Below are positions 529-38,603 of a DNA stretch of 38,658 nt, one piece after another. Each line of letters starts with the position of its first letter. The first letter of the stretch is position 1. The notes under the pieces were generated by a model. It ran no database searches. It saw only the letters and a program-made list of their open reading frames with translations, and had not been told where the DNA came from. The translations under genes were made by a program, and so were the position numbers. The stretch comes from a virus. The DNA lies in the UHGV virus genome UHGV-0206453; one strand, given 5' to 3'.

Positions 529-855
529 TCAAATAAGTGGTTTGCTGCCTAATTTCATTTTCTGGCGACCAACACAAGTCACACCCATTTCACTGCGTGG
601 CTTGCTGTACCATGTGCGCTGATTCTTGCGCTCAATACGTTGCAGGTTGCTTTCAATCTGTTCGTGGTATTCAGCCAGCACCGTAAGGTCTATCGGATTC
701 AGTGCGCTTTCTACTCGTGATTTCGGTTTGCGATTCAGCGAGAGAATAGGGCGGTTAACTGGTTTTGCGCTTACTCCAACCAACAGGGGATTTGCTGCTT
801 TCCATTGAGCCTGTTTCTCTGCGCGACGTTCGCGGCGGCGTGTTTGTGCATCCAT
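529..855 (-). CDS. N: antitermination protein N
   Basis: Internal ATG of ORF 529..987 with AGGAG RBS; protein MDAQTRRRERRAEKQAQWKAANPLL... matches lambda N (arginine-rich motif) nearly residue for residue. Confidence 0.9.
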   Translation of the reverse strand: MDAQTRRRERRAEKQAQWKAANPLLVGVSAKPVNRPILSLNRKPKSRVESALNPIDLTVLAEYHEQIESNLQRIERKNQRTWYSKPRSEMGVTCVGRQKMKLGSKPLI

Positions 856-1012
856 CTGGATTCTCCTGTCAGTTAGCTTTGGTTGTGTGTGGGAGTCGTA
901 GTCCTGAACGAAAACACCCCGCAATGGCACATTGGCAGCTAATCCGGATTCGCACTTCCGGCCAATGCTTCGTTTCGTATCACACACACCAAAGCCTTCT
1001 GCTTTGAATGCC

Positions 1013-3643: not shown

Positions 3644-3937
3644 ATGGTTCGTGCAAACAAACGCAACGAGGCTCTACGAATCGAGAGTGCGTTGCTTAAC
3701 AAAATCGCAATGCTTGGAACTGAGAAGACAGCGGAAGCTGTGGGAGTTGATAAGTCGCAGATCAGCAGGTGGAAGAGGGATTGGATTCCAAAGTTCTCAA
3801 TGCTGCTTGCTGTTCTTGAATGGGGCGTCGTCGACGACGATATGGCTCGATTGGCACGACAAGTTGCTTCGATTCTCACCAATAAAAAACGCCCGGCGGC
3901 AACCGAGCGTTCTGATCAAATACAAATGGAATTTTAA
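3644..3937 (+). CDS. cII: cII transcriptional activator
   Basis: Internal ATG of ORF 3584..3937; MVRANKRNEALRIESALLNKIAMLGTEKTAEAVGVDKSQISRWKRDW... matches lambda cII. Confidence 0.95.
   Translation: MVRANKRNEALRIESALLNKIAMLGTEKTAEAVGVDKSQISRWKRDWIPKFSMLLAVLEWGVVDDDMARLARQVASILTNKKRPAATERSDQIQMEF
3652..3665 (-). promoter_or_regulatory. pRE cII-binding motif TTGC-N6-TTGC
   Basis: Plus-strand GCAAACAAACGCAA inside cII codons 3-7 equals minus-strand TTGCGTTTGTTTGC, as at lambda pRE. Confidence 0.55.
3881..3909 (-). terminator. oop-type antisense RNA terminator inside 3' end of cII
   Basis: Minus-strand GC-rich hairpin (CGCTCGGTTGCCGCCGGGCG) followed by TTTTTTATT, as in lambda oop; the oop promoter side has diverged. 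Confidence 0.5.
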
Positions 3938-13921: not shown

Positions 13922-14357
13922 TAGCGATAATTTTACTCATCATCCTTCACATCTGGCTCTGTAGACAGGGTGATGATCACTTCTGGAGTGAATCCAGATT
14001 AAACATCTCATTGCTGATGCTTGATATTGAGCATCTGGCGCGCGGTAAGGGGCTGCGTTGAGATAAGAGCCAGTTCATTACAAAGCCTATCTACGGGTGG
14101 GCTTGATAATGAAACCGGAATTTATTCTGGGCAACCAGTTACGGCAGTACAGCGAAACAACCAAAGCCAGTAAGTGGGGAAATAACACTGGCAGCCACTG
14201 AAAGATGAACCTCCTGCCTTATGGCAAAAAAGATTCTTTGTAGTGGCGGACTGATGGAAAGACATCGGATAGAATAAAACAGTGGCTAGGGTAGCTCCCG
14301 AAAAGCGGAATCGTCACCGCCAGCCACTGAATCTATGACGAACAACTAGACGAGGTT

Positions 14358-19111: not shown

Positions 19112-20005
19112 ATGGACCAGATGGCAGAAAACACACCAGAAGTTGAAATCGAAACCGACGCGTCAGAGCAGATTCCTGATGATGTCGAACTGGCTGAAGA
19201 AGTCGAAACAGAAGATGGCAGTGAGTCCTCCGGCAATGATGCAGAGGAAGCTACTGAAACTGATGACGACGAATCAGAACAGGAATTCTACTTTGGTGAC
19301 GAAAAGCTGGATTCGCCAACCAGCGAAGATAGCGCAGAGCATGGACTGGTAAAACACCTGCGCAAGACGATTAAAGAGAAAGATCGCGAGCTGAAAGAGC
19401 TGATGCGTCAGTTTCAGAAACCCGTCGAGCAGCAGCCGGTAATCACTCAACCACCGCGAATGCCAAAACTGGATGATGAGGACATCGGTTTCGATGAAGA
19501 AATCTATCAGCAACGCATGGCTAAGTGGGCAGAGGATAACGGAAAGTACCAGCAACAGGAGATGGCTCGCAAGCAGAAGGAGCAGGAGCTTCAGGCTGCT
19601 TATCAAGAGCGATTATCCAAATATCAGCAACGTGTTAAGGCTCTCAAGGTTCCTGGCTATCAGGAAGCAGAACAGGCCGTACTCGAGGAAATCCCCATCG
19701 AGACACAAAACGCGATCCTGTTTGAGTCAGAGAAGCCGGAAATCGTTGTTCTGGCGCTTGGTCGCAACGCTGAACTGCGCAAGCAACTGGCAGAAGCTAC
19801 CAACCCCGTAGCAATTGGTCGTCTGCTGGAACGTATCGAATCTAAGGCCAGAATCATGCCAAAAGCAAAAACCACGGCAGCCACAACCCCGACAGTTAAG
19901 GGGAGCAACGGCGCAGTAATCAATAACCTCGACAAACTGAAAGCCAAGGCGCTGGAAACTGGTGACTGGACGCCGTATTTCGCCGCTAAAAAGGCAAAAA
20001 AATAA
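19112..20005 (+). CDS. scaffolding protein (P22 gp8-like)
   Basis: 297 aa, acidic N-terminus, coiled-coil-rich, basic C-terminal helix-turn-helix; between portal and coat. Confidence 0.8.
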   Translation: MDQMAENTPEVEIETDASEQIPDDVELAEEVETEDGSESSGNDAEEATETDDDESEQEFYFGDEKLDSPTSEDSAEHGLVKHLRKTIKEKDRELKELMRQFQKPVEQQPVITQPPRMPKLDDEDIGFDEEIYQQRMAKWAEDNGKYQQQEMARKQKEQELQAAYQERLSKYQQRVKALKVPGYQEAEQAVLEEIPIETQNAILFESEKPEIVVLALGRNAELRKQLAEATNPVAIGRLLERIESKARIMPKAKTTAATTPTVKGSNGAVINNLDKLKAKALETGDWTPYFAAKKAKK

Positions 20006-20023
20006 CCTATCGGAGCATTAAGC

Positions 20024-21277
20024 ATGGCTAACCAATTAGCAAAAGACCTTGAAATCATGTTCGAAAACTACGTTGAAGGCTTTGAGGCCGCCTGCGTAGT
20101 TTCCCGTAACGCTAAAAAATTCCGTCCCGGTGATACAGCAATGCAGCGAGCAGGTGATGTTCTGTATCGTCCACAGCATTACCACATGAACATTGAGGAA
20201 GGCCTCGATCTCAGCAGCAAAACGCCAACAGCACTGGTTCAGCGCCTTGTTCCTTCTGTGTTCAAGGAGCCGAAAAACATTCTGTACACTCTGGATGCGC
20301 GTGAAATGCGTGACCCGGAACATAAAACTGAAGCTGGTCGCGCCGCAGGTATGCGCCTTGCTGCACAGATTGACTCTGACCTGATTTCCATGGTCACGCA
20401 GCGTGCTACTAACGTGATCACAATGGCTGACTCAACCACTGGTTCACAGGGCCGTGATTTGTGGAACTGTGCGGCAGGTATTGATGCCACCATGACGGCG
20501 ATTGGTGTACCTCAGGGTATCAACCGTCGCTCTTTCTGGAACCCCTTCAACTACAAAGATCTTGCTGGCGAGCTTGGTCACCGTGCCTATGCTCAGGGAG
20601 CAACCCTGACAGCATACGAAAAAGCGCAGATCCCTCCGGTTGCTTCCTTTGATAGCTACAAGACCGATATTTCTGGTCGATTACCGAAAGGAAGCGCTGA
20701 ATCCTTGACAGTATCAGGCCAACCTGAACACAAGGTTGAAGCGAAAGATTCAAATGGTATGCCAGTTGATAACCGACAGGGGACCATTACGGTATCTGCA
20801 TCTGGCTTGCAGGTTGGTGATGCGTTCACCATTGCCGGTGTGAATTCCGTACACCAGATCACAAAAGATACCACCGGGCAACCGCAGGTATTCCGTGTTC
20901 TGGCTGTTAGCGGAACTACCGTAACAATCTCTCCAAAGATTCTCCCTGTTGAAAATGCCGATGTTGCGAGTCGTCCATATGCAAACGTCGATGCCAAGCC
21001 GGCAGCATCAGCAGCAATCACCATTCTCAACAAGAACGCAGCACCTGCTAACCTGTTCTGGGCTGATGGTTCTGTTGAGCTGATGTACGGCAAACTGGCG
21101 TTCCCGACTGGTCAGGGTCCACAGGTAATGACAGCAACCACCGAGCAGGGCGCTACGCTGATCATGTCTTACGCCTTCGACCACATCAAAGGCGTAACCA
21201 CTGCTCGTTTCACCACTCTGTACGGTTGCTCTGTACTGGTTCCTGAATATACGGGCATCGTTATTGCCGGGCAGTAA
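20024..21277 (+). CDS. major capsid (coat) protein, P22 gp5 family
   Basis: 417 aa; gene order and conserved segments (FWADGS etc.). Confidence 0.85.
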   Translation: MANQLAKDLEIMFENYVEGFEAACVVSRNAKKFRPGDTAMQRAGDVLYRPQHYHMNIEEGLDLSSKTPTALVQRLVPSVFKEPKNILYTLDAREMRDPEHKTEAGRAAGMRLAAQIDSDLISMVTQRATNVITMADSTTGSQGRDLWNCAAGIDATMTAIGVPQGINRRSFWNPFNYKDLAGELGHRAYAQGATLTAYEKAQIPPVASFDSYKTDISGRLPKGSAESLTVSGQPEHKVEAKDSNGMPVDNRQGTITVSASGLQVGDAFTIAGVNSVHQITKDTTGQPQVFRVLAVSGTTVTISPKILPVENADVASRPYANVDAKPAASAAITILNKNAAPANLFWADGSVELMYGKLAFPTGQGPQVMTATTEQGATLIMSYAFDHIKGVTTARFTTLYGCSVLVPEYTGIVIAGQ

Positions 21278-21282
21278 TTTTG

Positions 21283-21307
21283 GTGGGGCTTCGGCCCCAT
21301 TTTTATT
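21283..21307 (+). terminator. rho-independent terminator after coat gene
   Basis: GGGGC-ttcg-GCCCC hairpin followed by ATTTTTATT. Confidence 0.6.
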
Positions 21308-21318
21308 GGGAGAAGACA

Positions 21319-21507
21319 ATGGCACGAACAATGCTCTATAAGCCGGGCAACATGATCACCTGTGGTCAGGTTGCTGTCGATTACATCATTGTTGATGACG
21401 AAGAAGTTAAATCTCACCTGAAAAAAGGCTGGGTAAAAACTCCTGAAGAAACCGCAACGAAGCAAAAAGTGGCTAAGGCGGAAGAAGATGGCGAAAACGA
21501 AGGGTGA
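21319..21507 (+). CDS. hypothetical small protein (62 aa)
   Basis: Internal ATG of ORF 21280..21507 with GGGAGAAG RBS. Confidence 0.45.
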   Translation: MARTMLYKPGNMITCGQVAVDYIIVDDEEVKSHLKKGWVKTPEETATKQKVAKAEEDGENEG

Positions 21508-21949
21508 TCTCGTTCTAAAGGCTTTACGAAAAGCCGGACTGTATTCCAATGCCACGTTGACAGATGCTGACCCTCAGGCAATTGAAGATGCCATTAATGA
21601 CCTCGAAGACATGATGGCAGCATGGCAGGCTAAAGGTATCGAGCTTGGGTATCAGTTTGCTGATACAGAAAACGGCATCATGCCGTTACCTGACGATGAT
21701 TCAGGTATCCCTGCATGGGCAAATGATGGCGTCGCTTTGAAACTCGCTGTGCAAGTGTGCATGGATAACGTCATTCAGCCGTCAGATGCTCTCCTTACCG
21801 CTGCTGACAGTGCATATCAGACAATCTGTATCGCTTTAACCAAAATACCACCACTTGAGCGGCGAAATGACATGCCTCGCGGTAGTGGTAACAAAAGCGC
21901 GTTTACGTGGAATCGGTTTTACATCGAGAAAGATGATCCGAGTACGTGA
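21488..21949 (+). CDS. head-to-tail adaptor (P22 gp4-like)
   Basis: 153 aa; KTKGDLVLKALRKAG...ATLTD...EDMMA resembles P22 gp4. Confidence 0.8.
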   Translation: MAKTKGDLVLKALRKAGLYSNATLTDADPQAIEDAINDLEDMMAAWQAKGIELGYQFADTENGIMPLPDDDSGIPAWANDGVALKLAVQVCMDNVIQPSDALLTAADSAYQTICIALTKIPPLERRNDMPRGSGNKSAFTWNRFYIEKDDPST

Positions 21950-21958
21950 GGTGAATAA

Positions 21959-23377
21959 ATGCCGATTCAGCAACTTCCGCTTATGAAAGGTGTCGGCAAA
22001 GACTTTCGAAACGCCGACTATATCGACTATCTGCCAGTGAATATGTTGGCTACACCCAAAGAAATCCTTAACAGCAGCGGATATCTTCGCTCATTCCCGG
22101 GCATTGCCAAACGTTCTGATGTGAACGGTGCATCTCGCGGCGTCGAGTACAACATGGCGCAGAATGCTGTTTATCGCGTATGTGGTGGCAAGCTGTACAA
22201 AGGAGAAAGCGAGGTCGGTGATGTTGCCGGAAGTGGTCGCGTATCAATGGCGCATGGTCGAACATCTCAGGCGGTAGGCGTTAATGGTCAACTGGTCGAG
22301 TATCGCTATGATGGTACGGTTAAAACAGTCTCAAACTGGCCTACAGACAGCGGATTCACTCAGTATGAGTTAGGTTCAGTCCGCGACATTACACGCTTAC
22401 GTGGGCGTTATGCGTGGTCAAAAGACGGCACGGATTCATGGTTTATCACTGACCTTGAAGACGAATCGCATCCTGACCGTTACAGCGCACAATATCGCGC
22501 AGAATCGCAGCCGGACGGTATCATCGGCATCGGAACATGGCGAGACTTCATCGTCTGCTTTGGTTCATCGACGATTGAATATTTTTCCCTGACTGGGGCA
22601 ACCACCGTTGGTGCCGCTTTGTATGTCGCACAGCCATCACTGATGGTGCAGAAAGGCATTGCCGGGACTTACTGCAAAACGCCATTCGCTGATTCGTATG
22701 CGTTCATCAGCAATCCGGCAACAGGTGCGCCGTCTGTGTATATCATCGGCTCCGGTCAGGTATCACCAATCGCCAGCGCGAGCATTGAGAAAATCCTCCG
22801 CTCCTACACTGCTGATGAACTGGCTGATGGCGTGATGGAGTCTCTGCGATTTGATGCGCATGAGCTGCTGATTATCCACCTTCCGCGCCATGTTCTTGTT
22901 TACGACGCATCTTCAAGTGCCAATGGTCCGCAATGGTGTGTGCTGAAAACAGGCCTGTATGACGATGTGTACCGCGCTATCGACTTCATTTACGAAGGCA
23001 ATCAGATAACGTGCGGCGATAAGCTTGAATCGATGACAGGAAAATTGCAGTTCGATATCAGCAGCCAGTACGACAAGCAACAGGAACACCTGCTGTTTAC
23101 TCCGTTGTTCAAAGCGGATAACGCCAGAGTTTTCGACCTTGAAGTTGAATCGTCAACTGGAGTTGCGCAGTACGCTGACCGCCTGTTCCTCTCTGCAACC
23201 ACTGACGGCATAAATTACGGACGTGAGCAGATGATTGAGCAGAATGAACCGTTCGTTTACGACAAACGCGTTTTGTGGAAGCGTGTCGGGCGAATCAGGA
23301 AAAATGTCGGCTTCAAACTTCGCGTTATCACGAAGTCACCTGTAACTCTGTCTGGCGCTCAGATAAGGATTGAGTAA
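21959..23377 (+). CDS. tail hub protein (P22 gp10-like)
   Basis: 472 aa, same length and position as P22 gp10. Confidence 0.8.
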
Positions 23378-24078
23378 TGGCGGATTCATCACTGAATAAT
23401 CCTGTCGCGGTTCAGGCTACGCGCCTTGATGCTTCAATTTTGCCACGCAATATATTCAGCCAGTCTTATCTGCTGTATGTCATAAATCAGGGAGCTGATG
23501 TCGGTGCAATTGCTGGGAAGGCAAATCAGGCTGGCCAGGGCGCTTACGATGCCCAGGTAAAAAACGATGAACAGGACGTAGAACTGGCTGATCACGACGC
23601 AAGAATCACCGCAAACACAAAAGCGATAAATCTCCTTGAGGTCAGGTTAACAACCGCCGAAGGGAAGATAGTCGTACTGCGTAGCGATGTTGATTACTTG
23701 CTGGATGAGGTTATCGATATTCAGGCGCATCTGGTCACTGTTGACCAAAGACTGGATGGCGTAGAAAGCGATGTATCTGACATTAAGAGTGATTACGTAT
23801 CGAAAACCGTAACAGAATCGCAGTCTCTTGCGTCACCGCTGGATGTAAAAACATCATATTCAGTTGATGGAATTCAGGTAGTTGGAGAAAGGCAGACTGG
23901 ATGGACTGCAGCCACAGGTACGCCATTTCTTGGCTCATTCAACGCAAACCAGTCATACACTGTCGGCACTACGTACACGCAATCCGAAGTCGCAGCTCTC
24001 GCAACAGGTTTGCAGCAGGCGCGGCAGCGTATTCTGGCGCTTGAAACAGCACTTAGATTACATGGGCTGATTGACTGA
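23377..24078 (+). CDS. tail needle (P22 gp26-like)
   Basis: 233 aa; [36 protein letters not shown]... closely matches P22 gp26 N-terminus. Confidence 0.9.
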
Positions 24079-24533
24079 TGATTACATTCAAACCAACGCG
24101 AAACATCGACCTGATCGAAGCAGTCGGAAATCACCCTGACATTATTGCCGGGAGCAACAACGGTGATGGATACGACTACAAACCTGATTGCCGTTACTTT
24201 GAGGTGAACGTGCACGGGCAGTTCGGCGGCATTGTTTACTATCAGGAGATTCAGCCGCTGACATTCGATTGCCACGCCATGTACCTGTCAGAGATTCGAG
24301 GCTTCAGCAAGGAAATCGGGCTGGCGTTCTGGCGATACATTCTGACTAACACCACCGTTCAGTGCGTCACATCGTTCGCCGCACGCAAATTCCGCCACGG
24401 TCAGATGTACTGCGCAATGGTTGGCCTTAAGCGTGTAGGAACCATCAAGAAATACTTCAAAGGCGTGGATGACGTGACGTTTTACAGCGCCACACGCGAA
24501 GAACTAATCGACTTCCTGAATCACGGGAGATAG
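24078..24533 (+). CDS. P22 gp14-like assembly/ejection-associated protein
   Basis: 151 aa; position between needle and gp7 homologue as in P22. Confidence 0.55.
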   Translation: MITFKPTRNIDLIEAVGNHPDIIAGSNNGDGYDYKPDCRYFEVNVHGQFGGIVYYQEIQPLTFDCHAMYLSEIRGFSKEIGLAFWRYILTNTTVQCVTSFAARKFRHGQMYCAMVGLKRVGTIKKYFKGVDDVTFYSATREELIDFLNHGR

Positions 24534-24535
24534 CC

Positions 24536-25228
24536 ATGTTATATGCATTTAAACTGGGCAGAAAACTGCGCGGCGAGGAACCTTATTGCCCTGAAAAGGG
24601 TGGGAAAGGTGGCAGTTCTGATAAAAGCGCAAAGTATGCCGCAGAAGCTCAGAAGTATGCAGCAGACCTGCAAAATCAGCAGTGGCAGACGATCATGAAA
24701 AACCTTGCTCCGTTCACGCCTCTTGCGGAGCAGTATGTTAACCAGTTGCAGAATCTTTCCAGTTTAGAAGGTCAGGGGCAGGCACTTAATCAGTATTACA
24801 ACTCTCAGCAGTATAAAGACCTTGCAGGTCAGGCGCGTTACCAGAGTCTTGCTGCTGCGGAGGCGACGGGTGGACTTGGTTCGACAGCCACAAGTAATCA
24901 ACTGGCTACGATCGCGCCGACACTCGGTCAGTCTTGGTTATCAAACCAGATGAGCAATTACAACAATCTGGCAAACGTTGGGCTTGGTGCGCTGCAAGGT
25001 CAGGCAAACGCCGGGCAGACGTACGCCAACAACATGAGCAGCATTGCACAGCAAAGCGCAGCACTTGCCGCTGCTAATGCCAATAAACCATCAAGTCTTC
25101 AGACTGCAATTAGCGGTGGCACGTCTGGTGCGATTGCCGGTGCAGGTCTTGCCAGCCTTTTGGGAACATCAACGCCTTGGGGCGCTGGCATTGGTGCTGG
25201 TATCGGATTGCTTGACTCGTTGTTTTAA
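24536..25228 (+). CDS. ejection protein (P22 gp7-like)
   Basis: 230 aa, Q/N/A-rich low-complexity protein in gp7 position. Confidence 0.7.
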   Translation: MLYAFKLGRKLRGEEPYCPEKGGKGGSSDKSAKYAAEAQKYAADLQNQQWQTIMKNLAPFTPLAEQYVNQLQNLSSLEGQGQALNQYYNSQQYKDLAGQARYQSLAAAEATGGLGSTATSNQLATIAPTLGQSWLSNQMSNYNNLANVGLGALQGQANAGQTYANNMSSIAQQSAALAAANANKPSSLQTAISGGTSGAIAGAGLASLLGTSTPWGAGIGAGIGLLDSLF

Positions 25229-25237
25229 GGGGTAATC

Positions 25238-26533
25238 ATGGCTACTTGGCAAAGAACAAACGGCGGATTGTTGGCTGGTATCGGCGGCGTCAACTCAAAC
25301 GCTCCGAGCGTAAATGACATCGGCAATACGCTTCAGCTTATCAGGCAGAACAATGATATTGAGCGTTCAGGCGCTAACAATGTTGGGCTGACTGCTTTGC
25401 AAGGCCTTTCAGGTATTGCGGTGGTGTTTCAGCAGGAAAAGCAGGCTCAGCGGCAGAAAGAATTTCAGCAGGCATACGCTAATGCTTATGCGTCTGGTGA
25501 TCGCGGTGCTTTGCGTCAGTTGGCTACTCAATATCCAGAACAGATTGAATCCGTTCGTAAAGGCATGGGATTCATTGATGAAGATCAGCGTAATTCTATC
25601 GGCACCTTAGCGGCTGGCGCACGCCTTGCGTCATCGTCTCCAGAAGCAATGCAATCATGGCTGCAAAACAACGCCAAGGAACTGGCGCGCGTCGGTGTTG
25701 ACCCTAACAACGTTGCTCAGATGTATCAGCAGAATCCTTCAGGATTTGGTGAGTTTGTTGATCACCTTGGAATGGCTGCTCTTGGCCCGATTGACTACTT
25801 CAATGTTCAGGACAAGATGGCTGGTCGTGAAATTGACCGAGGCAGGCTGGCAGAGACAATCCGCAGCAATCAGGCTGGAGAAGCACTAACAGCTCGTGGT
25901 CAGGACATCCAGATACGTGGACAGAACATCAGCGCACAGAATGCTGCTCTTTCCCGCGAAATACAAAGAGCAGAATTACAAGAAAAGGCTCTGGACAGAC
26001 AGATAGCCAGAGAAAGCAATCAGTTAAAGCTTGAAGAGCTAAAACAGAAACAGGCAGATGTTCGGCAAAAGGCTGACATAGCCCGCGCTGACAGGCAGGC
26101 CGCCGCTCAGGGTGCAGTTGATACGTTCAGCACCGCGCTTGATTCTCTCAACGAGATAGAGCAAAGCCCCGGCCTTTCAAAAGCAGTAGGAATTCGCTCA
26201 GCGTTTCCGACAGTTCCTGGCTCTGATGCGGCTAACTTTGAAGCAAGGCTCGACACCTTTAAAGCTCAAACATTCCTTCCTATGGTGCAGTCTCTGAAGG
26301 GTATGGGCGCTCTTTCAGATGCTGAGGGTAAAAAATTATCCGATGCGGTTGGTGCCCTAAGCCCCAAAATGAGTGAAAAGGCTTTTCGTGACTCTATCGG
26401 AAAGATTAGAAATCAGCTTGAAAGCAAGTTGAGCACTGTTAAAAAACAGTTTGATTATCAGGAGCCGGTGCAGAATATGCCAGGGCAACAATCTACTACT
26501 GGCAGTAACTTTTCTTCACTATGGGGTGATTAA
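25238..26533 (+). CDS. ejection protein (P22 gp20-like)
   Basis: 431 aa, position and composition. Confidence 0.7.
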   Translation: MATWQRTNGGLLAGIGGVNSNAPSVNDIGNTLQLIRQNNDIERSGANNVGLTALQGLSGIAVVFQQEKQAQRQKEFQQAYANAYASGDRGALRQLATQYPEQIESVRKGMGFIDEDQRNSIGTLAAGARLASSSPEAMQSWLQNNAKELARVGVDPNNVAQMYQQNPSGFGEFVDHLGMAALGPIDYFNVQDKMAGREIDRGRLAETIRSNQAGEALTARGQDIQIRGQNISAQNAALSREIQRAELQEKALDRQIARESNQLKLEELKQKQADVRQKADIARADRQAAAQGAVDTFSTALDSLNEIEQSPGLSKAVGIRSAFPTVPGSDAANFEARLDTFKAQTFLPMVQSLKGMGALSDAEGKKLSDAVGALSPKMSEKAFRDSIGKIRNQLESKLSTVKKQFDYQEPVQNMPGQQSTTGSNFSSLWGD

Positions 26534-28530
26534 TGGCTAAAGCATGGAAAGATGTTATCGCCTCTCCACAGTATCAGGCGTTAGCACCAGAACAAAAAGC
26601 GCAGGCTCAGGAGCAATACTTCAATGAAGTCGTGGCCCCGCAAGCCGGAGAAAATGCAGAGCAGGCTAAGCAAGCTTTCTATGCTGCCTATCCATTGCCA
26701 TCTGTGCAGCCAGTGGAGACACAACAACCAGAAGCACAGCAACAACCACAGCAAAGTGGATTTATGTCTGATCTTGGTGAAGCCGTGAAAGAAACTGGTC
26801 GCGGACTGGTGCAGGCTGGCGTGAACGTGGCAAACATACCTGCATCAGTTGCCGATGCTGTAACAAGCGCGGCGGCATGGGCTGGCGGTAAACTCGGTAT
26901 TGGCGATGGTACATATCAACCAGCGCCACGAGTAACAACGCAGGGATTAGAGCAGGACTTTGGCCTTCAGCAAGGTGCGCTGACTCCACAAACGACAGAG
27001 GGAAGGGTATTTGCTGAAGCATTGCCTTACCTCACTCCTGCTGGCGTTGAGAGAGCGGCGGTACAGGCACCAACACTTGCTGGTCGAATTACTCAGGGGG
27101 CAACTCGCCTTCTAGCAGAAAACGCAGTTGGATCACTTGCTGCAAATAGTGCGAAAGATGATGCGGAAGCACTCGCCACCGATTTAGGCGTTGGTGTACT
27201 TGCTGGCGGTGCTATTAACGCTGCCGGACGTGGATTAGGTGCAGCTTATCGTGGCGTTCGTGGTGCTATCGCGCCAGAAGCGCAGCAGGCTATCAGATTT
27301 GCAGAGCGTGAAGGAGTTCCTCTGCACACCACAGACCTGTTACAACCGACTTCCCGCATCGGGAAAATGGCGCAAACGACAGCAGAAAATATCCCTCTGG
27401 CTGGAACAAGCGGAATGAGAGCAACGCAACAGGAAGCGAGAAGCCAGTTGGTTCAGAGATTTGCTGATAAATTCGGTGAGTATGATCCAGCGGTTGTTAT
27501 TGACAGCCTTAAAGCGAAAACATCAGGAATTCGTCGCGCCGCCGGCAATCGACTGGAGCAGGTTCAGAATGCTATGGCTGGAGTAAACATTCAGCCTGCG
27601 CGAGCAATTCAGCAGATTGATACAGAAATATCTAACCTGCAGAAGCTTGGTAAGGTTGCTGATAACGAGACTATTTCAAAACTTCAGTCATATCGTGATG
27701 AGCTTGTTCGCAATGCTGGCCCTGATGGTCCGGTAAATCTGGATTTGAAGCAATTAAGCGACCTGCGCAGCCAGTTCAGAATGGACGTGAAGGGTGAGCG
27801 ACCAGTGTTACCAAACCGTTCCGATGCCGCCATTCAGCGCGTTTACAAGGCAATGACTGACGATATCAATGGTGCCATTGGTCAGAATCTTGGCAACGAT
27901 ACTCTCCGTAAATATCAGCAGGCCAATGCCGTCTACGCTGACGAAGCGGCGAAACTAAAGAATACCAGGCTGAAGAATGTTCTCATGAAAGGCGACCTGA
28001 CGCCGGAAGTTGTCAACAACATGCTATTCAGCAAGAACAAATCGGAAATTAAGACGCTGTATAACTCAGTTGGTCGTGTTGGCAGGGCGCAAATGCGCAA
28101 TGGCATCATTGGAAAGGCGATGGAGAAATCAGGTGGTTCCCCTGACCAGTTCCTTCGACAGCTTAACATCCTGCAAGACCAGACTGGCATCACATTTAAA
28201 GGTCAGGATGCTGCTTATCTGAAAGGATTGAAAAACTACCTGCAATCCACGCAGCAGGCTGCAAAAGCGGCAGTAACAACACCAACAGGGCAGCAAACCA
28301 TCCCGTTCATTATCGGATATGGGACGGCAATGAACCCGGCGACAACTGGTGCAGCAGTAAGCTACGGACTTCTTACTCGCGCCTATGAGAGCGAACCATT
28401 CAGAAATGCAATGCTCCGAATGGCAAATACCCCACGCGGATCAACATCGTTTGAGAAAGCCATGCAGCAGGCGCAAAAGGCCATTAACGCCCTGACTCAG
28501 GGTGCCAAGTCTGATGCGTTGTCATGGTAA
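26533..28530 (+). CDS. ejection protein (P22 gp16-like)
   Basis: 665 aa, last gene before tailspike as in P22. Confidence 0.7.
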   Translation: MAKAWKDVIASPQYQALAPEQKAQAQEQYFNEVVAPQAGENAEQAKQAFYAAYPLPSVQPVETQQPEAQQQPQQSGFMSDLGEAVKETGRGLVQAGVNVANIPASVADAVTSAAAWAGGKLGIGDGTYQPAPRVTTQGLEQDFGLQQGALTPQTTEGRVFAEALPYLTPAGVERAAVQAPTLAGRITQGATRLLAENAVGSLAANSAKDDAEALATDLGVGVLAGGAINAAGRGLGAAYRGVRGAIAPEAQQAIRFAEREGVPLHTTDLLQPTSRIGKMAQTTAENIPLAGTSGMRATQQEARSQLVQRFADKFGEYDPAVVIDSLKAKTSGIRRAAGNRLEQVQNAMAGVNIQPARAIQQIDTEISNLQKLGKVADNETISKLQSYRDELVRNAGPDGPVNLDLKQLSDLRSQFRMDVKGERPVLPNRSDAAIQRVYKAMTDDINGAIGQNLGNDTLRKYQQANAVYADEAAKLKNTRLKNVLMKGDLTPEVVNNMLFSKNKSEIKTLYNSVGRVGRAQMRNGIIGKAMEKSGGSPDQFLRQLNILQDQTGITFKGQDAAYLKGLKNYLQSTQQAAKAAVTTPTGQQTIPFIIGYGTAMNPATTGAAVSYGLLTRAYESEPFRNAMLRMANTPRGSTSFEKAMQQAQKAINALTQGAKSDALSW

Positions 28531-28590
28531 TGTAGATGTAAATTACAGTTAAAAATTAAATTGCTATGGAGTTGATTGAGCTTTTTGCTT

Positions 28591-28618
28591 ACATTAATGC
28601 AAATTTCTGCATTAATGT
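28591..28618. promoter_or_regulatory. perfect palindrome ACATTAATGCA-N6-TGCATTAATGT upstream of tailspike
   Basis: 11-bp perfect inverted arms in the AT-rich gp16-tailspike intergenic region; operator-like. Confidence 0.35.
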
Positions 28619-28720
28619 GTGTTTAATATGAATAGAAGATCATTTTTCAAATCAATAGCGTCATTTGTAGCATTAACTCCATTATCTTCTTTATCAAACA
28701 TGTCTAATAGGATTGCACAC

Positions 28721-31099
28721 ATGACTAATATAACACCAAATGTGGTTATAGGAATGCCTTCGCAACTCTTCACTATGGCGCGTTCTTTTAAAGCCGTAGC
28801 CAATGGCAAAATTTATATCGGTAAAATTGATACTGACCCGGTAAATCCTGAAAACCAGATTCAGGTTTATGTAGAGAACGAAGACGGTTCTCACATTCCT
28901 GTTGCACAGCCAATCATCATTAACGCTGGCGGATATCCGGTATATAACGGACAGATTGCCAAATTCGTTACTGTACAGGGCCATTCTATGGCTGTTTATG
29001 ATGCGTATGGTGCACAGCAGTTTTATTTTCCGAATACGCTGAAGTACGATCCAGATCAATTTAGCTACCAACTTTCATCTGCAAATGGTGCATATCTTGT
29101 TGGTTATGCAACGTCAACTGTTGGTGATTCACTTGATGATATTAATAATGGAAAAATAGTTACCAGTTTTGTGTCAGATTTGAATGCTGATAATAGGGAT
29201 ATTATTTTCGGGCAAACAGGTAATGTATATATACCAAGTAATATAACAGTAAGATGCAACCTTCTTCCTGACGATGACGTAACAAAATTAACTGGAGAAG
29301 GAAAAATTCTCACCAGAGATCCATGGGGGAATGAGCACATATTTGATGTTGGATTGGCAACTCATGGCAGTAAATTTACATGCAGTGGTGTTATTAATCA
29401 ACATGCCAGATTGAATGAATTATGTAGAGTTGGAATTGTTGGAGACTCAATCACTGACGGCGCATACGGTGCTGGATGGTCAGCTAATCCAACCGATTCT
29501 AATGGTGACCTATCTTCAACTAACTACGATCACAATAGTAATGGTGGTTCAGGTTCTTGGTTTCGCACATTTACCGACTGGCTTAACCGATTTACTAAAA
29601 ATAGTGCTTACATATTTAAGGCTGAAAACTGCGCATCTTCTGGAAAGCGACTCATTGACGGGTGGGCTAATCGTAACTTCGATCATGGATTTTTCAAAAA
29701 TACAGCATACGGAAATACCGCACCGGATGTGTGTTTTCTTTCAATGGGCGTAAATGATAATGGGCAGATTGATAGCATTGGATTTGATCAGTATCTATAT
29801 CGTTTCGAGCAATTTATTCGCAAAGCTTGGGGTTATGGATGCGCTGTCTGTGTCGTCTCAATGAACCAAAATGGATCACAATGGGGAGCCCTTGAAGCAT
29901 CAATTAAGAAGAGCATTGAAAGATTGATGCCTGCTGTAGAGTTTCTTGACCTATCACAGGCGGTTACAGATATGTACAGAGATGTTGGCAGTCACACTCT
30001 TCAGGAAATAGCTCGTAGACCTACAGATGGGACTTTTGATGCCACGCATTTTGCGCCTCTTGGACACCAATATATTGGTGCTTATGCCGCAAAGGAATTT
30101 ATGCCTTATCGAGTTCATATTGCGAAGAATGGTAACAACTTCGTACCGAATGTTGATAATGATATACAGGCTATCGGTTACCCTTCAGGCGCTATTTACA
30201 GCGTTAGCATGGAGAGATTGAGCGGTAACACATATCTTAATGGAATAACAGGGTGGGGAACGATAAAACCATCATCTGAAAATGTTACTATCCGTTACTT
30301 TATCTGGTGCGATACATCAGATTTATCAATGGTTATTTTCGAGCCTTATAACCCTTCCTATGTTACTGATGGCCGAGCCAACTCATTTTCAGTTATAGAG
30401 CAAGACATTCGTAATGGCGTATATATATCTGGCAACATTGCAAGCAACGGGATTGCGTCATTTACAAACAAGTTGACAACGAGAACAACAACCCTCAAAA
30501 AAGGATTGAATCAGATAGAAGTTATTTATGATGGTTCCCCATCAAAAGTATATCCACCAGGGCTGTTGTTTAGAGGAGATTTGAAAGAGTCATGCTCGCA
30601 AAATGCTTCAGTGTATCTTGCTGAAAATGCAATAAAAGGAGTATATGGGCAGGTAAGGGATAGAGCTGATTTGTTATTGTCGTATGCGGCAGAAACTGCT
30701 AATGATGAATCTCCTGATATGTATGGTGCAACTAAATCACCAAATGTTCAAAATGTTGCTTTATCATCAATTCCTGTTGGCTGCGGAGTGGTTTTTTACT
30801 ATAAACCTTCTTCACAAAGCGGAGTTGTTGCAAAGAGAACTTCAACTGGAATTGAGATTTCAACAATGCTTTTCGGCGAACTAACAGTTGTTGGAACTTT
30901 AACATGTGATGTTACAGGGGAAGTAATGCTCACAGCTAGTTTGAATGGCTTAACTCCCACAATAACAGTTAAGCCAACTACTGGTGCAACTGTTACTAAT
31001 CCTGTTCCCGGTTTCTCTGGTGGAAAAATAGCTCTAATAAACAAAGGAGCAAGTGGAAAAACATTATCTGTGAAATATTCTTCACACTATATTATTTAA
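28721..31099 (+). CDS. tailspike: P22-type head-binding N-domain fused to SGNH/GDSL esterase-type receptor domain
   Basis: Internal ATG of ORF 28619..31099; N-terminus [38 protein letters not shown] matches P22 gp9 head-binding domain; SGNH blocks [21 protein letters not shown]. Confidence 0.85.
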
Positions 31100-31162
31100 A
31101 CAAATACACACAAAGCTTGCACTGAATTGCAAGGCTTTGTGCTATTCGATAGTTAAGGTGGA

Positions 31163-32320
31163 TCACTCCACCTTTTCATCAAGCCAATCCGCCCACCATT
31201 GCATCATTTCTCTGCGCTTATCGAGATACTGAGCATGGTTGTAAATTCCACGTACAGATCCGCCGTTGGCATGTGCCAGTTGCACTTCAATGGCGTCGGC
31301 AGGCCATTCGTGCTCGTTCATAATCGTGCTGAATTCATGCCTGAATCCGTGACCGCTTTCCAGACCCTCATAGCCGATTTGTTTGATCACAAGCAGTACC
31401 GCGTTCTCGCAGATTGGCTTCTTCTTATCGTTGCGCCCGGCAAAAACAAACTCTGATACAGGCTTGGTGATTGAGCTTAGCGTAGTGAGAAGTTCAACTA
31501 CCTGGTCTGACATAGGAACCACATGAATTTTGCGTCCCTTCATCACACTGGCGTCAATGGTGATAATCCTGTTTTCAAAATCGACGTTCTTCCATAGCAT
31601 GGAACGAAGCTCTTTTGTTCTTAGGGCTGTGTAGCGCAAAACTTTAGTCGCAATGAGCGATACGATGCTTCCTGAAAATGTTGCCAGTGCTTTGTTGAAT
31701 GCAGGGATCTGGTCTGCAGGAAGAAACGGGAAGTTCTTCTTGCGGTATCCTTTCATGGCGTCTGCAAGGTCAGGTGCCGGGTTATATTTAGCCCTTCCGG
31801 TGACAATAGCGTAACGGAAAACCTCTCCGCATCTTCTGCGGGCTTTGTTGGCTCGCTCCATTGCACCGCGATCTTCAAATCTGCGGATTACTTCCAGCAG
31901 TTGCATCGGCTCAATATCCTGAATTTCAAGGCCGCCGATGATAGGTAAAATGTCGTCATCAAACATTTTTGCAAGTTCAGTCGCATACCCTACTGACCAT
32001 ACTTGCTTCTTGTGCTCGTACCATTCCTTGTAAATCGCACTAAAGGAATTGTTGTTAGACGAAGCCTTTTTCGCCTTTACCGGATCGATGCCAACCGAGA
32101 TGTCTTTCCTCGCAGTCCATGCTTTATCCCTTGCCTCTTGCAAAGTCATAAGCGGATATTTTCCGACGGTCAGGATTTTCTCCTTACCGTCAATCTTGTA
32201 GCGAAGCTGCCATACCTTTTTCCCGGATACAGGGACATAAAGGTACAGGCCATTACCATCGAGAAGGCGGTATGGTTTTTCTTTCGGCTTTGCTGCTTCA
32301 ATCTGCTTAACGGTGAGCAT
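31163..32320 (-). CDS. int: tyrosine integrase, P4-like family (N-terminal arm-binding domain)
   Basis: ATG at 32320 within ORF 31163..32356 (alternative GTG at 32356); LTVKQIEAAKP N-terminus; catalytic motifs HGFRH, LAHANGGSVRGIYNH. Confidence 0.9.
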   Translation of the reverse strand: MLTVKQIEAAKPKEKPYRLLDGNGLYLYVPVSGKKVWQLRYKIDGKEKILTVGKYPLMTLQEARDKAWTARKDISVGIDPVKAKKASSNNNSFSAIYKEWYEHKKQVWSVGYATELAKMFDDDILPIIGGLEIQDIEPMQLLEVIRRFEDRGAMERANKARRRCGEVFRYAIVTGRAKYNPAPDLADAMKGYRKKNFPFLPADQIPAFNKALATFSGSIVSLIATKVLRYTALRTKELRSMLWKNVDFENRIITIDASVMKGRKIHVVPMSDQVVELLTTLSSITKPVSEFVFAGRNDKKKPICENAVLLVIKQIGYEGLESGHGFRHEFSTIMNEHEWPADAIEVQLAHANGGSVRGIYNHAQYLDKRREMMQWWADWLDEKVE

Positions 32321-33178: not shown

Positions 33179-33190
33179 AATCATCTCCAT

Positions 33191-33214
33191 AAAACAAAAC
33201 TCGCCGTAGCGAGT
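33191..33214 (-). terminator. rho-independent terminator
   Basis: Minus-strand ACTCGC-tacg-GCGAGT hairpin followed by TTTTGTTTT. Confidence 0.45.
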
Positions 33215-33364
33215 TCAGATAAAAGAAATCCCCGTCAGTGCGAGGATTGTTAGTTGCGCTCTGCTGCTGCCTTAGCCATTACCATATCCACCAAACTTCA
33301 CCAGACATGATTCTCGCAATCACTATCATCACCAAAGTGATAATCACAACTTTAACTGGCGGCA

Positions 33365-34147
33365 TCATTCACCATCCTGCTGCGGTGCTGCTGGATATGC
33401 TTTTCTCATCCAATGCGTGGCGTCATGAATAACGAACTGATATTCATCATCAGTAAACATCGAGCCATCCCACTGTAGCCCGTCAAGAACGCCTCTGGAT
33501 GGAGAGAATACCCAGATATCGAAATCGTATTTCTCCGGCATTCGCTCACTACAGCTTATCCAACCATCTGGAATTACCGGAGAGTTGCCACCCTGAACAG
33601 TAGGTATATCCGGACCTTTGCGAATCGCCCTGGCAAGATCGATTTGGTCGTCGTACAACCAGTCACCTGTTTGCGGATGATTGGCTTCTGCCAATTGTGC
33701 AGCCCACTCCAGGCCGTCTTTGTGTCCTTGCAGATAGTCCAGCGGTAACTCATCACTATTACTTACAGGTTCGGCCTGAAGCATGGCGGCGCGATATGCG
33801 TTCCAGCCAACAGCTTTTCCGTGTTCAAACGCGCTGTCAAAGTCATCATCAATTTCCATCGCAGCGGGCACAGATACCGGCGCTGGCGGGGCGGTGTAAA
33901 GCGGCGTTACTTCTCGCAGCGGGTCGGCATAAGCATTGCCACTATCGAAGCTGACGTTGTTTTTTGCGCCGCCGCCTGACAGCAGCCACGCCACCGGCTC
34001 CTGCTCCATGCCAGCCGTCAGCGCTTCCAGTGCGATTTTGAAGATTTGCGCATCGAGTTGCGCTTCTTCAAAATCAGGGTAATGGGTTGTTACCGCAAGA
34101 CGGCGCTCAAGCTTCTCAATCAACTGCTCTTTGGTGAAGGTGCTCAT
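33365..34147 (-). CDS. hypothetical protein with C-terminal DUF551-like domain
   Basis: 260 aa; C-terminus SCSERMPEKYDFDIWVF...ATHWM parallels the DUF551-like ORF at 14358; GAGGA RBS. Confidence 0.6.
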   Translation of the reverse strand: MSTFTKEQLIEKLERRLAVTTHYPDFEEAQLDAQIFKIALEALTAGMEQEPVAWLLSGGGAKNNVSFDSGNAYADPLREVTPLYTAPPAPVSVPAAMEIDDDFDSAFEHGKAVGWNAYRAAMLQAEPVSNSDELPLDYLQGHKDGLEWAAQLAEANHPQTGDWLYDDQIDLARAIRKGPDIPTVQGGNSPVIPDGWISCSERMPEKYDFDIWVFSPSRGVLDGLQWDGSMFTDDEYQFVIHDATHWMRKAYPAAPQQDGE

Positions 34148-36292: not shown

Positions 36293-36841
36293 TTATTTAG
36301 CTAATTTTTTCCAGATTGCTGAAACGTATTTGGCTTGGTGGATGGCATCATCAAGCGCGTTGTGGCGAGTTCCTTTGAATGGCATATCTCGCTTAGGGTC
36401 GAATCCTATTACCTTTCCAAGCTCGACGATTGTTCTTACGTCGCGGTCATTCCACCACTGCCACGGAACTGGCTGCCCTGTCAGCGAATAACTGTTGCGG
36501 AGAATAACGCAGTCAAATGATGCTCCATTCCCCCAAACCTGAACGAATTTGTGGTTAGCGTTCTTTATGATGAATTCAGATAACCATGAAAGAGCCGTTG
36601 AAAGCTCCTGAGTGTTGCTGGTTAGCGATTTTCTGGCTTCTTCACTCTGTTCCATCCACCATAAAATCGTTGAAGCGTCAGGACGCGCCCGATATCGCAT
36701 TGATGACTCAAGCGAGATATTTACCGAGAACTCTTCTCCTGTTTCTCCGGTATTCGGGTCAAAGAACACCGCCCCAATAGAAATAACAGGCGCGTATGGC
36801 CCGTTGCCCATTGTTTCAAGGTCAACCATTAAGTGATTCAT
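36293..36841 (-). CDS. DnaQ-like (DEDD) 3'-5' exonuclease
   Basis: 182 aa; MVDLETMG exo I motif, later H..ALDDA-type motif; AAGGA RBS. Confidence 0.7.
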   Translation of the reverse strand: MNHLMVDLETMGNGPYAPVISIGAVFFDPNTGETGEEFSVNISLESSMRYRARPDASTILWWMEQSEEARKSLTSNTQELSTALSWLSEFIIKNANHKFVQVWGNGASFDCVILRNSYSLTGQPVPWQWWNDRDVRTIVELGKVIGFDPKRDMPFKGTRHNALDDAIHQAKYVSAIWKKLAK

Positions 36842-36849
36842 GTAAGTCC

Positions 36850-37365
36850 TTAAATTGCGTGAATAGCGTGACGAGGGAAGGGGAGAGTTACTGGTGCAAA
36901 GGGTATATCGTCGTCAAAATCCATAGGTGGTTCGCTGTGATTCCCTTGCTGCTGAGGTTGCTGTCTTTGTTGCTGACCGTTATTTCGCTGAGGTGAAGAC
37001 TGTTCATTGCCTCCTTGCTTGCCACCAATCATTTGCATAGTTCCACCAACGCCCACGATGACTTCAGTAGTGAACCGATCCTGTCCGCTTTGATCCTGCC
37101 ATTTTCTTGTCCGCAATTTGCCTTCAAGATAAACCTCAGAGCCTTTTCGCAGATATTCGCTGGCAATTTCTGCCAGTTTCCCGCTCATTACCACGCGGTG
37201 CCACTCCGTCTGCTCCTTTTGCTCTCCAGTTTGCTTATCACGCCATTGTTCTGACGTAGCAACTGTAAGGTTTGCAAATGCCGTTCCTGATGGTGAATAT
37301 CTGATTTCTGGATCATGCCCAAGGCGACCAATAATGATCACCTTATTTACGCCTCTGCTTGCCAT
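36850..37365 (-). CDS. ssb: single-stranded DNA-binding protein
   Basis: 171 aa; [23 protein letters not shown]...TEWHRVV...[11 protein letters not shown] closely matches E. coli SSB including acidic tail. Confidence 0.9.
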
Positions 37366-38073
37366 TTATGCCGCCTGTTTTAGTTCGTTAACTCTGATGT
37401 TCATTACCTGAACGCATTTAGCCTGCGCCTCCTCATTTCCAGCCATTAATTGCCAGTCACGCTGATAACGCTCGATGAGTTTTTTCTTATCAGTTTCTTT
37501 CGATGCATAATCGCTGAAGTCTTTCAGGATTTGTTCGCAGTCAACCGATGGAGATTTCTGGTTGGTATTTTCTGGTGATGGTTTGTTATCTGATGCTGTG
37601 ATTGCCCATCCCGGCAGCGATGGAGGGAGCCAGTAAAATCCTGTTCCATCCTTCAGTTTTGCCCTGTGCCACCCCTGCTTTTTATCGAGAGATGTTTGTG
37701 CGAAACCTTCCTCAAGGTTATACAGATACCGACCGATTCCCCACTGAACGGCAGCGCGCTTCATTGCACCGGAACGACCACCTTTGACGGCTTCTACCTG
37801 CGTGTTTTCAGCAGCATCCCATTTGGTTACCCATTCGGAATCAATCTTGATTGATATGCCGCATTCAACTCCGCCGTTGTTGGGAATATCGCGGTATTCA
37901 TTGCGCCATCCTGCTTTGCCGCAAACATCGTCCAGGCGTTTCATGATTGCCCGGTTCGTGACATAAGCCAGCACCATAGCCCACACTTTGCCATCGCGTG
38001 TTTTACCGCTTTGCTGTATTCGCCATTCGATATCTTCAGGGCTGAATGGCTCATCGAATTTGTTCAAATCCAT
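37366..38073 (-). CDS. single-strand annealing recombinase, Rad52-like core with P22 Erf-like C-terminus
   Basis: 235 aa; C-terminal ILKDFSDYASKETDKKKLIERYQRDWQL...CVQVMNIRVNELKQAA matches P22 Erf C-terminus; GAGGTG RBS. Confidence 0.8.
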   Translation of the reverse strand: MDLNKFDEPFSPEDIEWRIQQSGKTRDGKVWAMVLAYVTNRAIMKRLDDVCGKAGWRNEYRDIPNNGGVECGISIKIDSEWVTKWDAAENTQVEAVKGGRSGAMKRAAVQWGIGRYLYNLEEGFAQTSLDKKQGWHRAKLKDGTGFYWLPPSLPGWAITASDNKPSPENTNQKSPSVDCEQILKDFSDYASKETDKKKLIERYQRDWQLMAGNEEAQAKCVQVMNIRVNELKQAA

Positions 38074-38081
38074 AATTCACC

Positions 38082-38270
38082 TCAGAATGGTAATTCGGAT
38101 GGGGAGGAAAGAAATTCGCGCTCATTCATGCGCTCTCTTTGTGCTTGCCATAAACAAAGTTGTTTCTTTGATTTATCTCCCGCTTTACGCCAGTAACGAG
38201 CCTCAGCAATGTGATATTCTCTTTTTAATCGACTTAACTCTGGAGTTTTCGCCAGCTCTACCGGAATCAT
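38082..38270 (-). CDS. hypothetical small protein (about 62 aa)
   Basis: ATG overlapping kil stop (ATGA) with GGAGG RBS within ORF 38082..38282. Confidence 0.5.
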   Translation of the reverse strand: MIPVELAKTPELSRLKREYHIAEARYWRKAGDKSKKQLCLWQAQRERMNEREFLSSPSELPF

Positions 38271-38380
38271 TTTGACCTCCATTTTCTGTAGGCTTCGACG
38301 GCCTCACGAAACATCTTTTCATCGCCAATAAAAGTGGCGATAGTGAATTTAGTCTGAATAGCCATAAGTGTTTTATCCAT
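38267..38380 (-). CDS. kil: Kil-like host division inhibitor (37 aa)
   Basis: Internal ATG of ORF 38267..38506; MDKTLMAIQTKFTIATFIGDEKMFREAVEAYRKW resembles lambda Kil N-terminus. Confidence 0.6.
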   Translation of the reverse strand: MDKTLMAIQTKFTIATFIGDEKMFREAVEAYRKWRSK

Positions 38381-38513
38381 TTTTTGGAACTCCTGGCTGA
38401 TTAAGTACGTCGATGAGTCGTTTCCATCCGTCACGTAATTTACGGGTGATTCGTTCAAGTAAAGATTCGGAAGGGCAGCCAGCAACAGGCCACCCTGCAA
38501 TGGCATATTGCAT
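38373..38513 (-). CDS. cIII: cIII (FtsH/HflB inhibitor), C-terminally shortened relative to lambda
   Basis: Hand-translated 46-aa ORF MQYAIAGWPVAGCPSESLLERITRKLRDGWKRLIDVLNQPGVPKNG with AAGGAG RBS; matches lambda cIII to residue 46; stop overlaps kil start. Confidence 0.8.
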   Translation of the reverse strand: MQYAIAGWPVAGCPSESLLERITRKLRDGWKRLIDVLNQPGVPKNG

Positions 38514-38575
38514 GGTGTGCTCCTTATTTATTTACACATAACGAAAACGCCTCGAGTGAAGCGTTATTGGTATGC

Positions 38576-38603
38576 ATATAAAAAGGCCCTCACATCGGAG
38601 GGC
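38576..38603 (-). terminator. rho-independent terminator upstream of cIII in leftward operon
   Basis: Minus-strand GCCCTC-cgatgtg-GAGGGC hairpin followed by TTTTTATAT; a weaker AACGC...GCGTT hairpin lies just downstream. Confidence 0.5.

Follow-up and report, generated by a model that had tools for sequence, protein, structure and literature searches.

In bacteriophage lambda, CIII (NP_040620) is a 54-aa protein encoded at positions 33299..33463 of NC_001416, and kil occupies positions 33187..33330, with an overlap of 32 nt between the two genes; lambda kil overlaps both cIII and gam (PMC3961180). According to the passage of PMC1838920 that cites Kornitzer et al. 1991, CIII inhibits FtsH competitively while being degraded by it in turn, and residues 14-37 of the lambda protein are "essential and sufficient" for its activity. 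Nearly all Kil homologues possess a C-terminal RSK/RSSK motif, and Kil minus its N-terminal five residues remains active (PMC11762379). The 37-aa-type Kil of phage HK629 causes a division block that is ZipA-dependent (PMC11762379; Naha, Cameron and Margolin 2025). In phage HK620, a 141-nt cIII gene overlaps a 114-nt kil gene encoding 37 aa, which is followed by an hkaM-like ORF; the 46-aa cIII product (NP_112048) carries the GenBank note "shorter than similar proteins due internal stop codon". The literature that could be searched contained no experimental work on a 46-aa CIII.

In this work, the cIII-kil locus of the virus genome UHGV-0206453 was compared with these systems. The window is the whole stretch of DNA that was analyzed (38,658 nt), and strands are given as (+) or (-). 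As a result, we report that the locus, which has the same gene arrangement as HK620, is a real and ordinary cIII-kil pair with a widespread, previously annotated short cIII allele.

Results

Genomic context of the locus

UHGV-0206453 has the mosaic genome of a P22-like (Lederbergvirus-type) phage and the immunity of lambda. Its first 25 kb align with CUS-3, Kapi1 and their relatives at ~96% identity over 59-64% of the query. The cII gene (3644..3937, (+)), which encodes an FtsH substrate of the kind that CIII protects, matched the Pfam model Phage_CII with E = 5e-48 over 90/91 positions. We take cI, cro and N to be lambda-type from recognition of their translations, cII being the only one of these genes that was checked against a model; the N ORF lies at 529-987 (-). 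In the place of lambda rexA/rexB, downstream of the lambda-type cI, lies a possible moron or exclusion gene, an ORF of 311-330 aa (1332-2324, (-)) that has a P63C domain (Pfam E = 6.6e-23) and belongs to phrog_2384, a family of unknown function. A 156-aa ORF (50-520, (-)) located between N and the end of the window matched phrog_1636 with E = 5e-112 and had no Pfam match; if the window is a circular genome, this ORF would sit just upstream of the cIII-proximal terminators. A match to the int-alpA sRNA (RF02996) was found at 14279-14341 (+), with 42 bits against a gathering score of 35.8.

The recombination module (36293-38270, (-)) comprises an hkaM-like ORF, a Rad52/Erf-like annealing protein, SSB, and an Rv2179c-like 3'-5' exonuclease. 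This module is unlike lambda gam/bet/exo, and its Rad52/Erf-like protein differs from the Sak4-like one of HK620. Its first gene, the hkaM-like ORF of 62 aa (38082..38270, (-); phrog_1723, E = 1.6e-33), is at the same position as HK620 hkaM, and its ATG overlaps the TGA of kil in the sequence ATGA. The mosaic junction of this non-lambda module with lambda-like DNA lies inside the last kil codons.

The short cIII gene and its product

The cIII coding sequence is an ATG-initiated ORF of 46 codons plus TAA at 38373..38513 (-), and its product in the ORF list is MQYAIAGWPVAGCPSESLLERITRKLRDGWKRLIDVLNQPGVPKNG. This protein matched Pfam PF02061 (Lambda_CIII) with E = 3e-30 (104.4 bits against a cutoff of 25.7) and phrog_550 with E = 2e-28. 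Positions 1-42 of the 42 in the Pfam model are covered by CIII residues 2-43, so the missing tail lies outside the conserved domain. The Pfam E values of CIII and Kil (8e-22, see below) rule out a chance ORF. NCBIfam contains no CIII or Kil model: the window CIII gave only a sub-threshold SecE match, and nothing was returned for lambda CIII, for either Kil, or for the 79-aa ORF described below.

The initial annotation of this DNA had proposed that the cIII frame follows lambda through residue 46 or so and then terminates, losing the lambda C-terminus and keeping the central helix, and the alignments bear this out. Against lambda CIII residues 1-46 the match is gap-free and 45/46 positions are identical (98%), the only difference being I36V; within the amphipathic helix region (residues 14-37) 23/24 positions are identical, with I36V as the sole change. 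The stop codon TAA (38375..38373, (-)) occupies codon 47, and UHGV-0206453 CIII ends at Gly46, whereas lambda CIII continues for 8 residues (SNTYGYPD), the last 8 of its 54. With the stop at codon 47, UHGV-0206453 CIII is not a lambda-length 54-aa product with the SNTYGYPD end; this end is typical of lambda CIII and is not family-defining, since it falls outside the Pfam model. The lambda C-terminus assumed in the initial annotation is correct: cIII of NC_001416 truly encodes 54 aa.

The CIII proteins of HK620 and JEP4 are 100% identical to that of UHGV-0206453, and HK620 has the same TAA and the same overlap of 8 nt with kil. Compared to HK620, codon 53 of the remnant tail is changed from CCA to TCA, Kil codon 28 is Val and not Ile, and a 4-nt insertion is present upstream of the cIII Shine-Dalgarno sequence. 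A second cIII N-terminal class (P0014, 48 aa, beginning MIYAIAGGARMGVFQLNESLL) possesses the same helix, the same ...PGVPKNG end and the same TAA, and differs from UHGV-0206453 CIII in its N-terminal 16 residues. To see whether this class is the HK022 type, the HK022 record was searched with tblastn, which found no cIII between int and gene O (positions 20000-32000).

One base in two reading frames

The minus-strand text at the cIII end and kil start is CCAAAAAATGGATAAAACA, within the wider context CCAAAAAATGGATAAAACACTTATGGC. Counted from the start of the kil ATG (38380..38378, (-)), the cIII TAA begins 5 nt further on, and the ORF coordinates give cIII and kil 8 nt in common, ATGGATAA (38373..38380, (-)), in agreement with the overlap of cIII stop and kil start noticed earlier. 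The base at 38374 (-), which is A here and C in lambda in the DNA and protein alignments, is read in both frames. The change from C to A turns cIII codon 47 from TCA to TAA (S47stop) and kil codon 3 from CAA to AAA (Q3K): the cIII frame is GGA TCA AAC in lambda and GGA TAA in UHGV-0206453, and the kil frame is ATG GAT CAA and ATG GAT AAA, respectively. Translation past the cIII stop gives NTYGYSD between two stop codons, a remnant of the lambda SNTYGYPD end. This remnant, including the old TAA (38349..38372, (-)), is untranslated in the cIII frame and corresponds to kil codons 3-11.

When the window is aligned at the DNA level with HK620, JEP4 and lambda, no gap appears between the cIII start and kil codon 34, and the kil ATG of lambda is at the identical site, within cIII codons 45-46. 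Because cIII ends sooner, via one nonsense substitution and with no rearrangement, the two genes overlap by 8 nt and not by the 32 nt of lambda. The earlier description of a compact cIII-kil arrangement does not stand in this respect, as the DNA is collinear with lambda and the pair is no more compact. The operon position, ribosome binding site, thermoregulator RNA and kil start position are common to lambda and UHGV-0206453.

The kil gene and its product

The kil coding sequence (38267..38380, (-)) has 37 codons plus TGA, and the 37-aa Kil, MDKTLMAIQTKFTIATFIGDEKMFREAVEAYRKWRSK, ends in ...KWRSK and thus contains the RSK motif. It matched Pfam PF06301 (Lambda_Kil) with E = 8e-22 (76.8 bits against a cutoff of 27.6) over 31/31 positions. 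The helix-turn-helix core of Kil (residues 4-36) is present, and the alignment to lambda Kil extends through Trp34. Homology with lambda stops within the kil 3' end, after ...AAATGGA, where the different recombination module starts, and because lambda homology ends inside kil, the protein has 37 aa ending in RSK, as opposed to the 47 aa of lambda Kil ending in ILILKLRSSKSIH. The HK629 Kil is also a 37-aa protein with an RSK C-terminus and the same Lys3; it is 36/37 identical (97%, as is HK620 Kil), residue 28 being V in UHGV-0206453 and I in HK629. By analogy with lambda Kil and HK629 Kil', the UHGV-0206453 protein would be an FtsZ-ring inhibitor peptide causing ZipA-dependent ring disruption. 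The kil Shine-Dalgarno sequence AGGAG (38390..38394, (-)) is located 9 nt before the kil ATG, inside cIII codons 40-42, and is kept in all upstream haplotypes listed among the IMG/VR loci, for both cIII alleles.

A 79-aa ORF in the kil frame (38267-38506, (-)) extends back through most of cIII. This ORF was rejected as the main Kil product, though not rigorously, on the grounds that the Pfam Kil model and lambda Kil start at the internal ATG with its own Shine-Dalgarno sequence; almost every locus keeps the extension open, simply as a result of cIII conserving this DNA. The HK629 RefSeq record labels the 79-aa extended ORF (L223, 1650-1889) as Kil and leaves cIII without annotation. Both CIII and Kil matched phrog_2461 ('Kil', 89 positions), and one protein of 72 aa (P0038) is an in-frame fusion of cIII(1-23) to Kil.

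Regulatory elements

The order of the early leftward operon, namely N, tL2-type terminators, cIII and kil, matches that of HK620 and lambda. A pattern scan together with the HK620 annotation identified terminator-like hairpins at the HK620 tL2A position (38586..38603, (-)) and tL2B position (38546..38565, (-)). The cIII translation-control RNA, Rfam RF01804 (Lambda_thermo), was found by cmscan at 38468..38526 (-) over model positions 1-59 of 59, with 88.5 bits against a gathering score of 50, and extends over the ribosome binding site of cIII and its first codons. The cIII Shine-Dalgarno sequence AAGGAG (38520..38525, (-)), 6 nt before the ATG, is invariant compared with lambda. The 4-nt insertion, GTAA, is situated at ~38532-38535 (-), ~19-22 nt upstream of the cIII ATG and just outside the Rfam thermoregulator element (...TATGTGTAAATAAATAAGGAG versus ...TATGTATAAATAAGGAG in lambda), and is common to ~12 of ~208 IMG/VR cIII loci.

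Distribution of the short allele

The short cIII allele is already known: it is annotated in HK620, has its own RefSeq record and is frequent among prophages of E. coli. The 46-aa CIII corresponds to WP_001198866.1, which occurs together with the Kil protein WP_000361831.1 in PGAP-annotated E. coli chromosomes, where the gene has 141 nt and overlaps kil by 8 nt. Since a protein search at 90% identity places the 46-aa and 54-aa CIII in one cluster, exact look-up and DNA patterns were used instead. By exact look-up, the 46-aa CIII is present on at least 1000 public contigs, and the 37-aa Kil likewise on at least 1000. A 459-nt query around the locus had matches in 326 phage records and in 2276 of 5426 complete E. 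coli genomes. The same TAA and 8-nt overlap were found in the Stx phages examined (one Stx1a and one Stx2a). In IMG/VR, the DNA pattern scan detected 99 contigs with the TAA context and at least 120 with the TCA context.

A sample unselected for the tail was obtained from the first 80 IMG/VR cIII loci matched by a 25-mer of the central helix. The lambda-type TCA codon was found in 44 of these loci (43 of them encoding 54 aa and one shortened earlier), 14 encode the 46-aa form, and 22 a form of 41 aa. This 41-aa class (...ITRKLRDGWKR followed by VEVLLCAMK and a stop) diverges within residues 14-37 and has no kil ATG behind it. A cIII 25-mer also matched species-representative genomes of unrelated phyla, including Shewanella, Pseudomonas, Enterococcus, Bradyrhizobium, Kitasatospora, Paenibacillus and other genera. 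Several of the matched contigs measure ~48.4-48.5 kb, most of them have low coverage, and their cIII tail and Kil do not differ from those of lambda. Judging by these features, the matches in unrelated taxa look like lambda DNA contamination of assemblies and give no information on host range.

The TAA was seen with lambda-type and ARMGAFQLN-type N-termini and with Kil of both 37 aa and 47 aa, which indicates that it was carried across backgrounds by recombination or arose more than once. The 37-aa Kil accompanies 77 of the 99 TAA-context contigs; recombination has joined the TAA to the 47-aa Kil in 12 cases, with 5 cases of the reverse exchange.

Sequence variation in the short and full-length alleles

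Variation in codons 1-44 was examined in 73 lambda-type TAA alleles, a pattern-selected sample of related, non-independent sequences. Among variants occurring more than once, 10 were synonymous and 2 were conservative replacements (I36V and K44Q); all other replacements were singletons. An extra stop was present in 1 of the 73 lambda-type short alleles, as compared with 1 of 116 full-length alleles. These counts, which are indicative given the relatedness of the sequences, indicate purifying selection on codons 1-44 of the short alleles and not decay.

The tail behaves differently. Its last 9 nt are changed in 16/97 short alleles against 0/120 full-length alleles among the matches listed, a contrast (Fisher p = 1.2e-6) that is likewise indicative for related and pattern-selected sequences. 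Fifteen of the 16 changes are silent in Kil and the remaining one is Kil T10S, while in the cIII frame they would replace a residue or abolish the stop; the most frequent one, CCA to TCA, is carried by UHGV-0206453. The confinement of tail drift to short alleles is an argument that these phages really leave the tail untranslated. In the full-length alleles among the matches listed, residues 47-54 show perfect conservation; a role for the tail could account for this, although kil also constrains the same bases.

Discussion

The locus is best explained as an ordinary lambdoid pL gene pair, cIII-kil, carrying a common short and probably working cIII allele, a reading to which we assign a probability of about 0.88. 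The proposed scheme is as follows. One C to A substitution changes cIII codon 47 to TAA and Kil Gln3 to Lys at the same time. The resulting 46-residue CIII retains both the conserved N-terminal residues and the amphipathic helix of residues 14-37, and by homology with lambda CIII this helix would competitively inhibit the membrane protease FtsH, thereby stabilizing CII and favoring lysogeny. The 37-residue Kil would block FtsZ-ring assembly via ZipA. Each gene has its own ribosome binding site, with cIII translation presumably under the known RNA structural switch. That the 46-aa CIII may inhibit FtsH as the 54-aa form does is suggested by the literature and by homology, and the population evidence, taken with PMC1838920, makes it probable that its function is retained, as the initial annotation had supposed.

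An alternative is that the nonsense codon inactivates cIII, leaving a pseudogene in phages that enter lysogeny without CIII. A premature stop does remove 8 of 54 residues, and some annotators omit the gene, as in the HK629 record, which has no cIII feature. Against inactivation, the whole Pfam domain, residues 14-37 and the regulatory RNA are all intact, synonymous polymorphism exceeds replacements in the short alleles with almost no further disruptions, and the allele has spread over many phage backgrounds; loss of the gene is therefore highly unlikely. It is scarcely credible that the stop is a sequencing error, or that it is read through or recoded to produce full-length CIII. The frame beyond the stop still reads NTYGYSD to the old stop codon, and an A-run (CCAAAAAATGG) precedes the stop, which would suit such a scenario. 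However, the tail remnant is conserved because the same bases code for kil, and its changes, which are silent or mild in Kil and replacements or stop loss in cIII, occur in short alleles only, contrary to what read-through would require; an error is contradicted by hundreds of independently assembled sequences, and by curated phage genomes as well, that show the identical TAA. A -1 frameshift on the A-run was also considered and rejected: kil is in the +1 frame with respect to cIII, so the slip enters neither the tail nor the kil frame.

A further explanation, compatible with the working short allele favored here, is that the substitution spread through an effect on kil, either by Kil Q3K or because ribosomes finishing cIII at the kil start alter translational coupling and Kil dosage, the shortening of CIII being a tolerated by-product. 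The base at 38374 is indeed dual-coding, the cIII stop lies only 5 nt after the kil ATG, and the TAA is linked strongly, not absolutely, to the 37-aa Kil type. On the other hand, kil has its own AGGAG at a 9-nt spacing in both alleles, the dispensability of Kil residues 1-5 (PMC11762379) makes it improbable that Q3K matters much, and the linkage may represent hitch-hiking with the neighboring recombination module, so that we regard this explanation as unlikely. Neutral hitch-hiking, an effect on Kil, or altered CIII turnover could each account for the spread of the allele, and whichever of them applies, the identity of the feature is unchanged.

Since the allele had been recorded before, the discovery value of the locus is small, and its use is mainly practical, in annotation. 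A 46-aa cIII ending in ...PKNG should be entered in annotations as intact and not as a pseudogene, and the 79-aa kil-frame ORF, called Kil in the HK629 record, should not displace cIII. The site is also a neat case of a nonsense change in one frame being a mild missense change in the overlapping frame, with the abandoned cIII tail drifting only where the surviving frame stays silent. That the TCA/TAA site is a maintained functional polymorphism and not a neutral one is unlikely. Given that CIII is itself degraded by FtsH, loss of the last 8 residues could alter CIII turnover, and, were the polymorphism functional, a cIII ending 5 nt past the first base of the kil ATG could shift Kil dosage. 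In that event, the two alleles would set different lysogenization frequencies or different degrees of division arrest in lambdoid and Stx phages.
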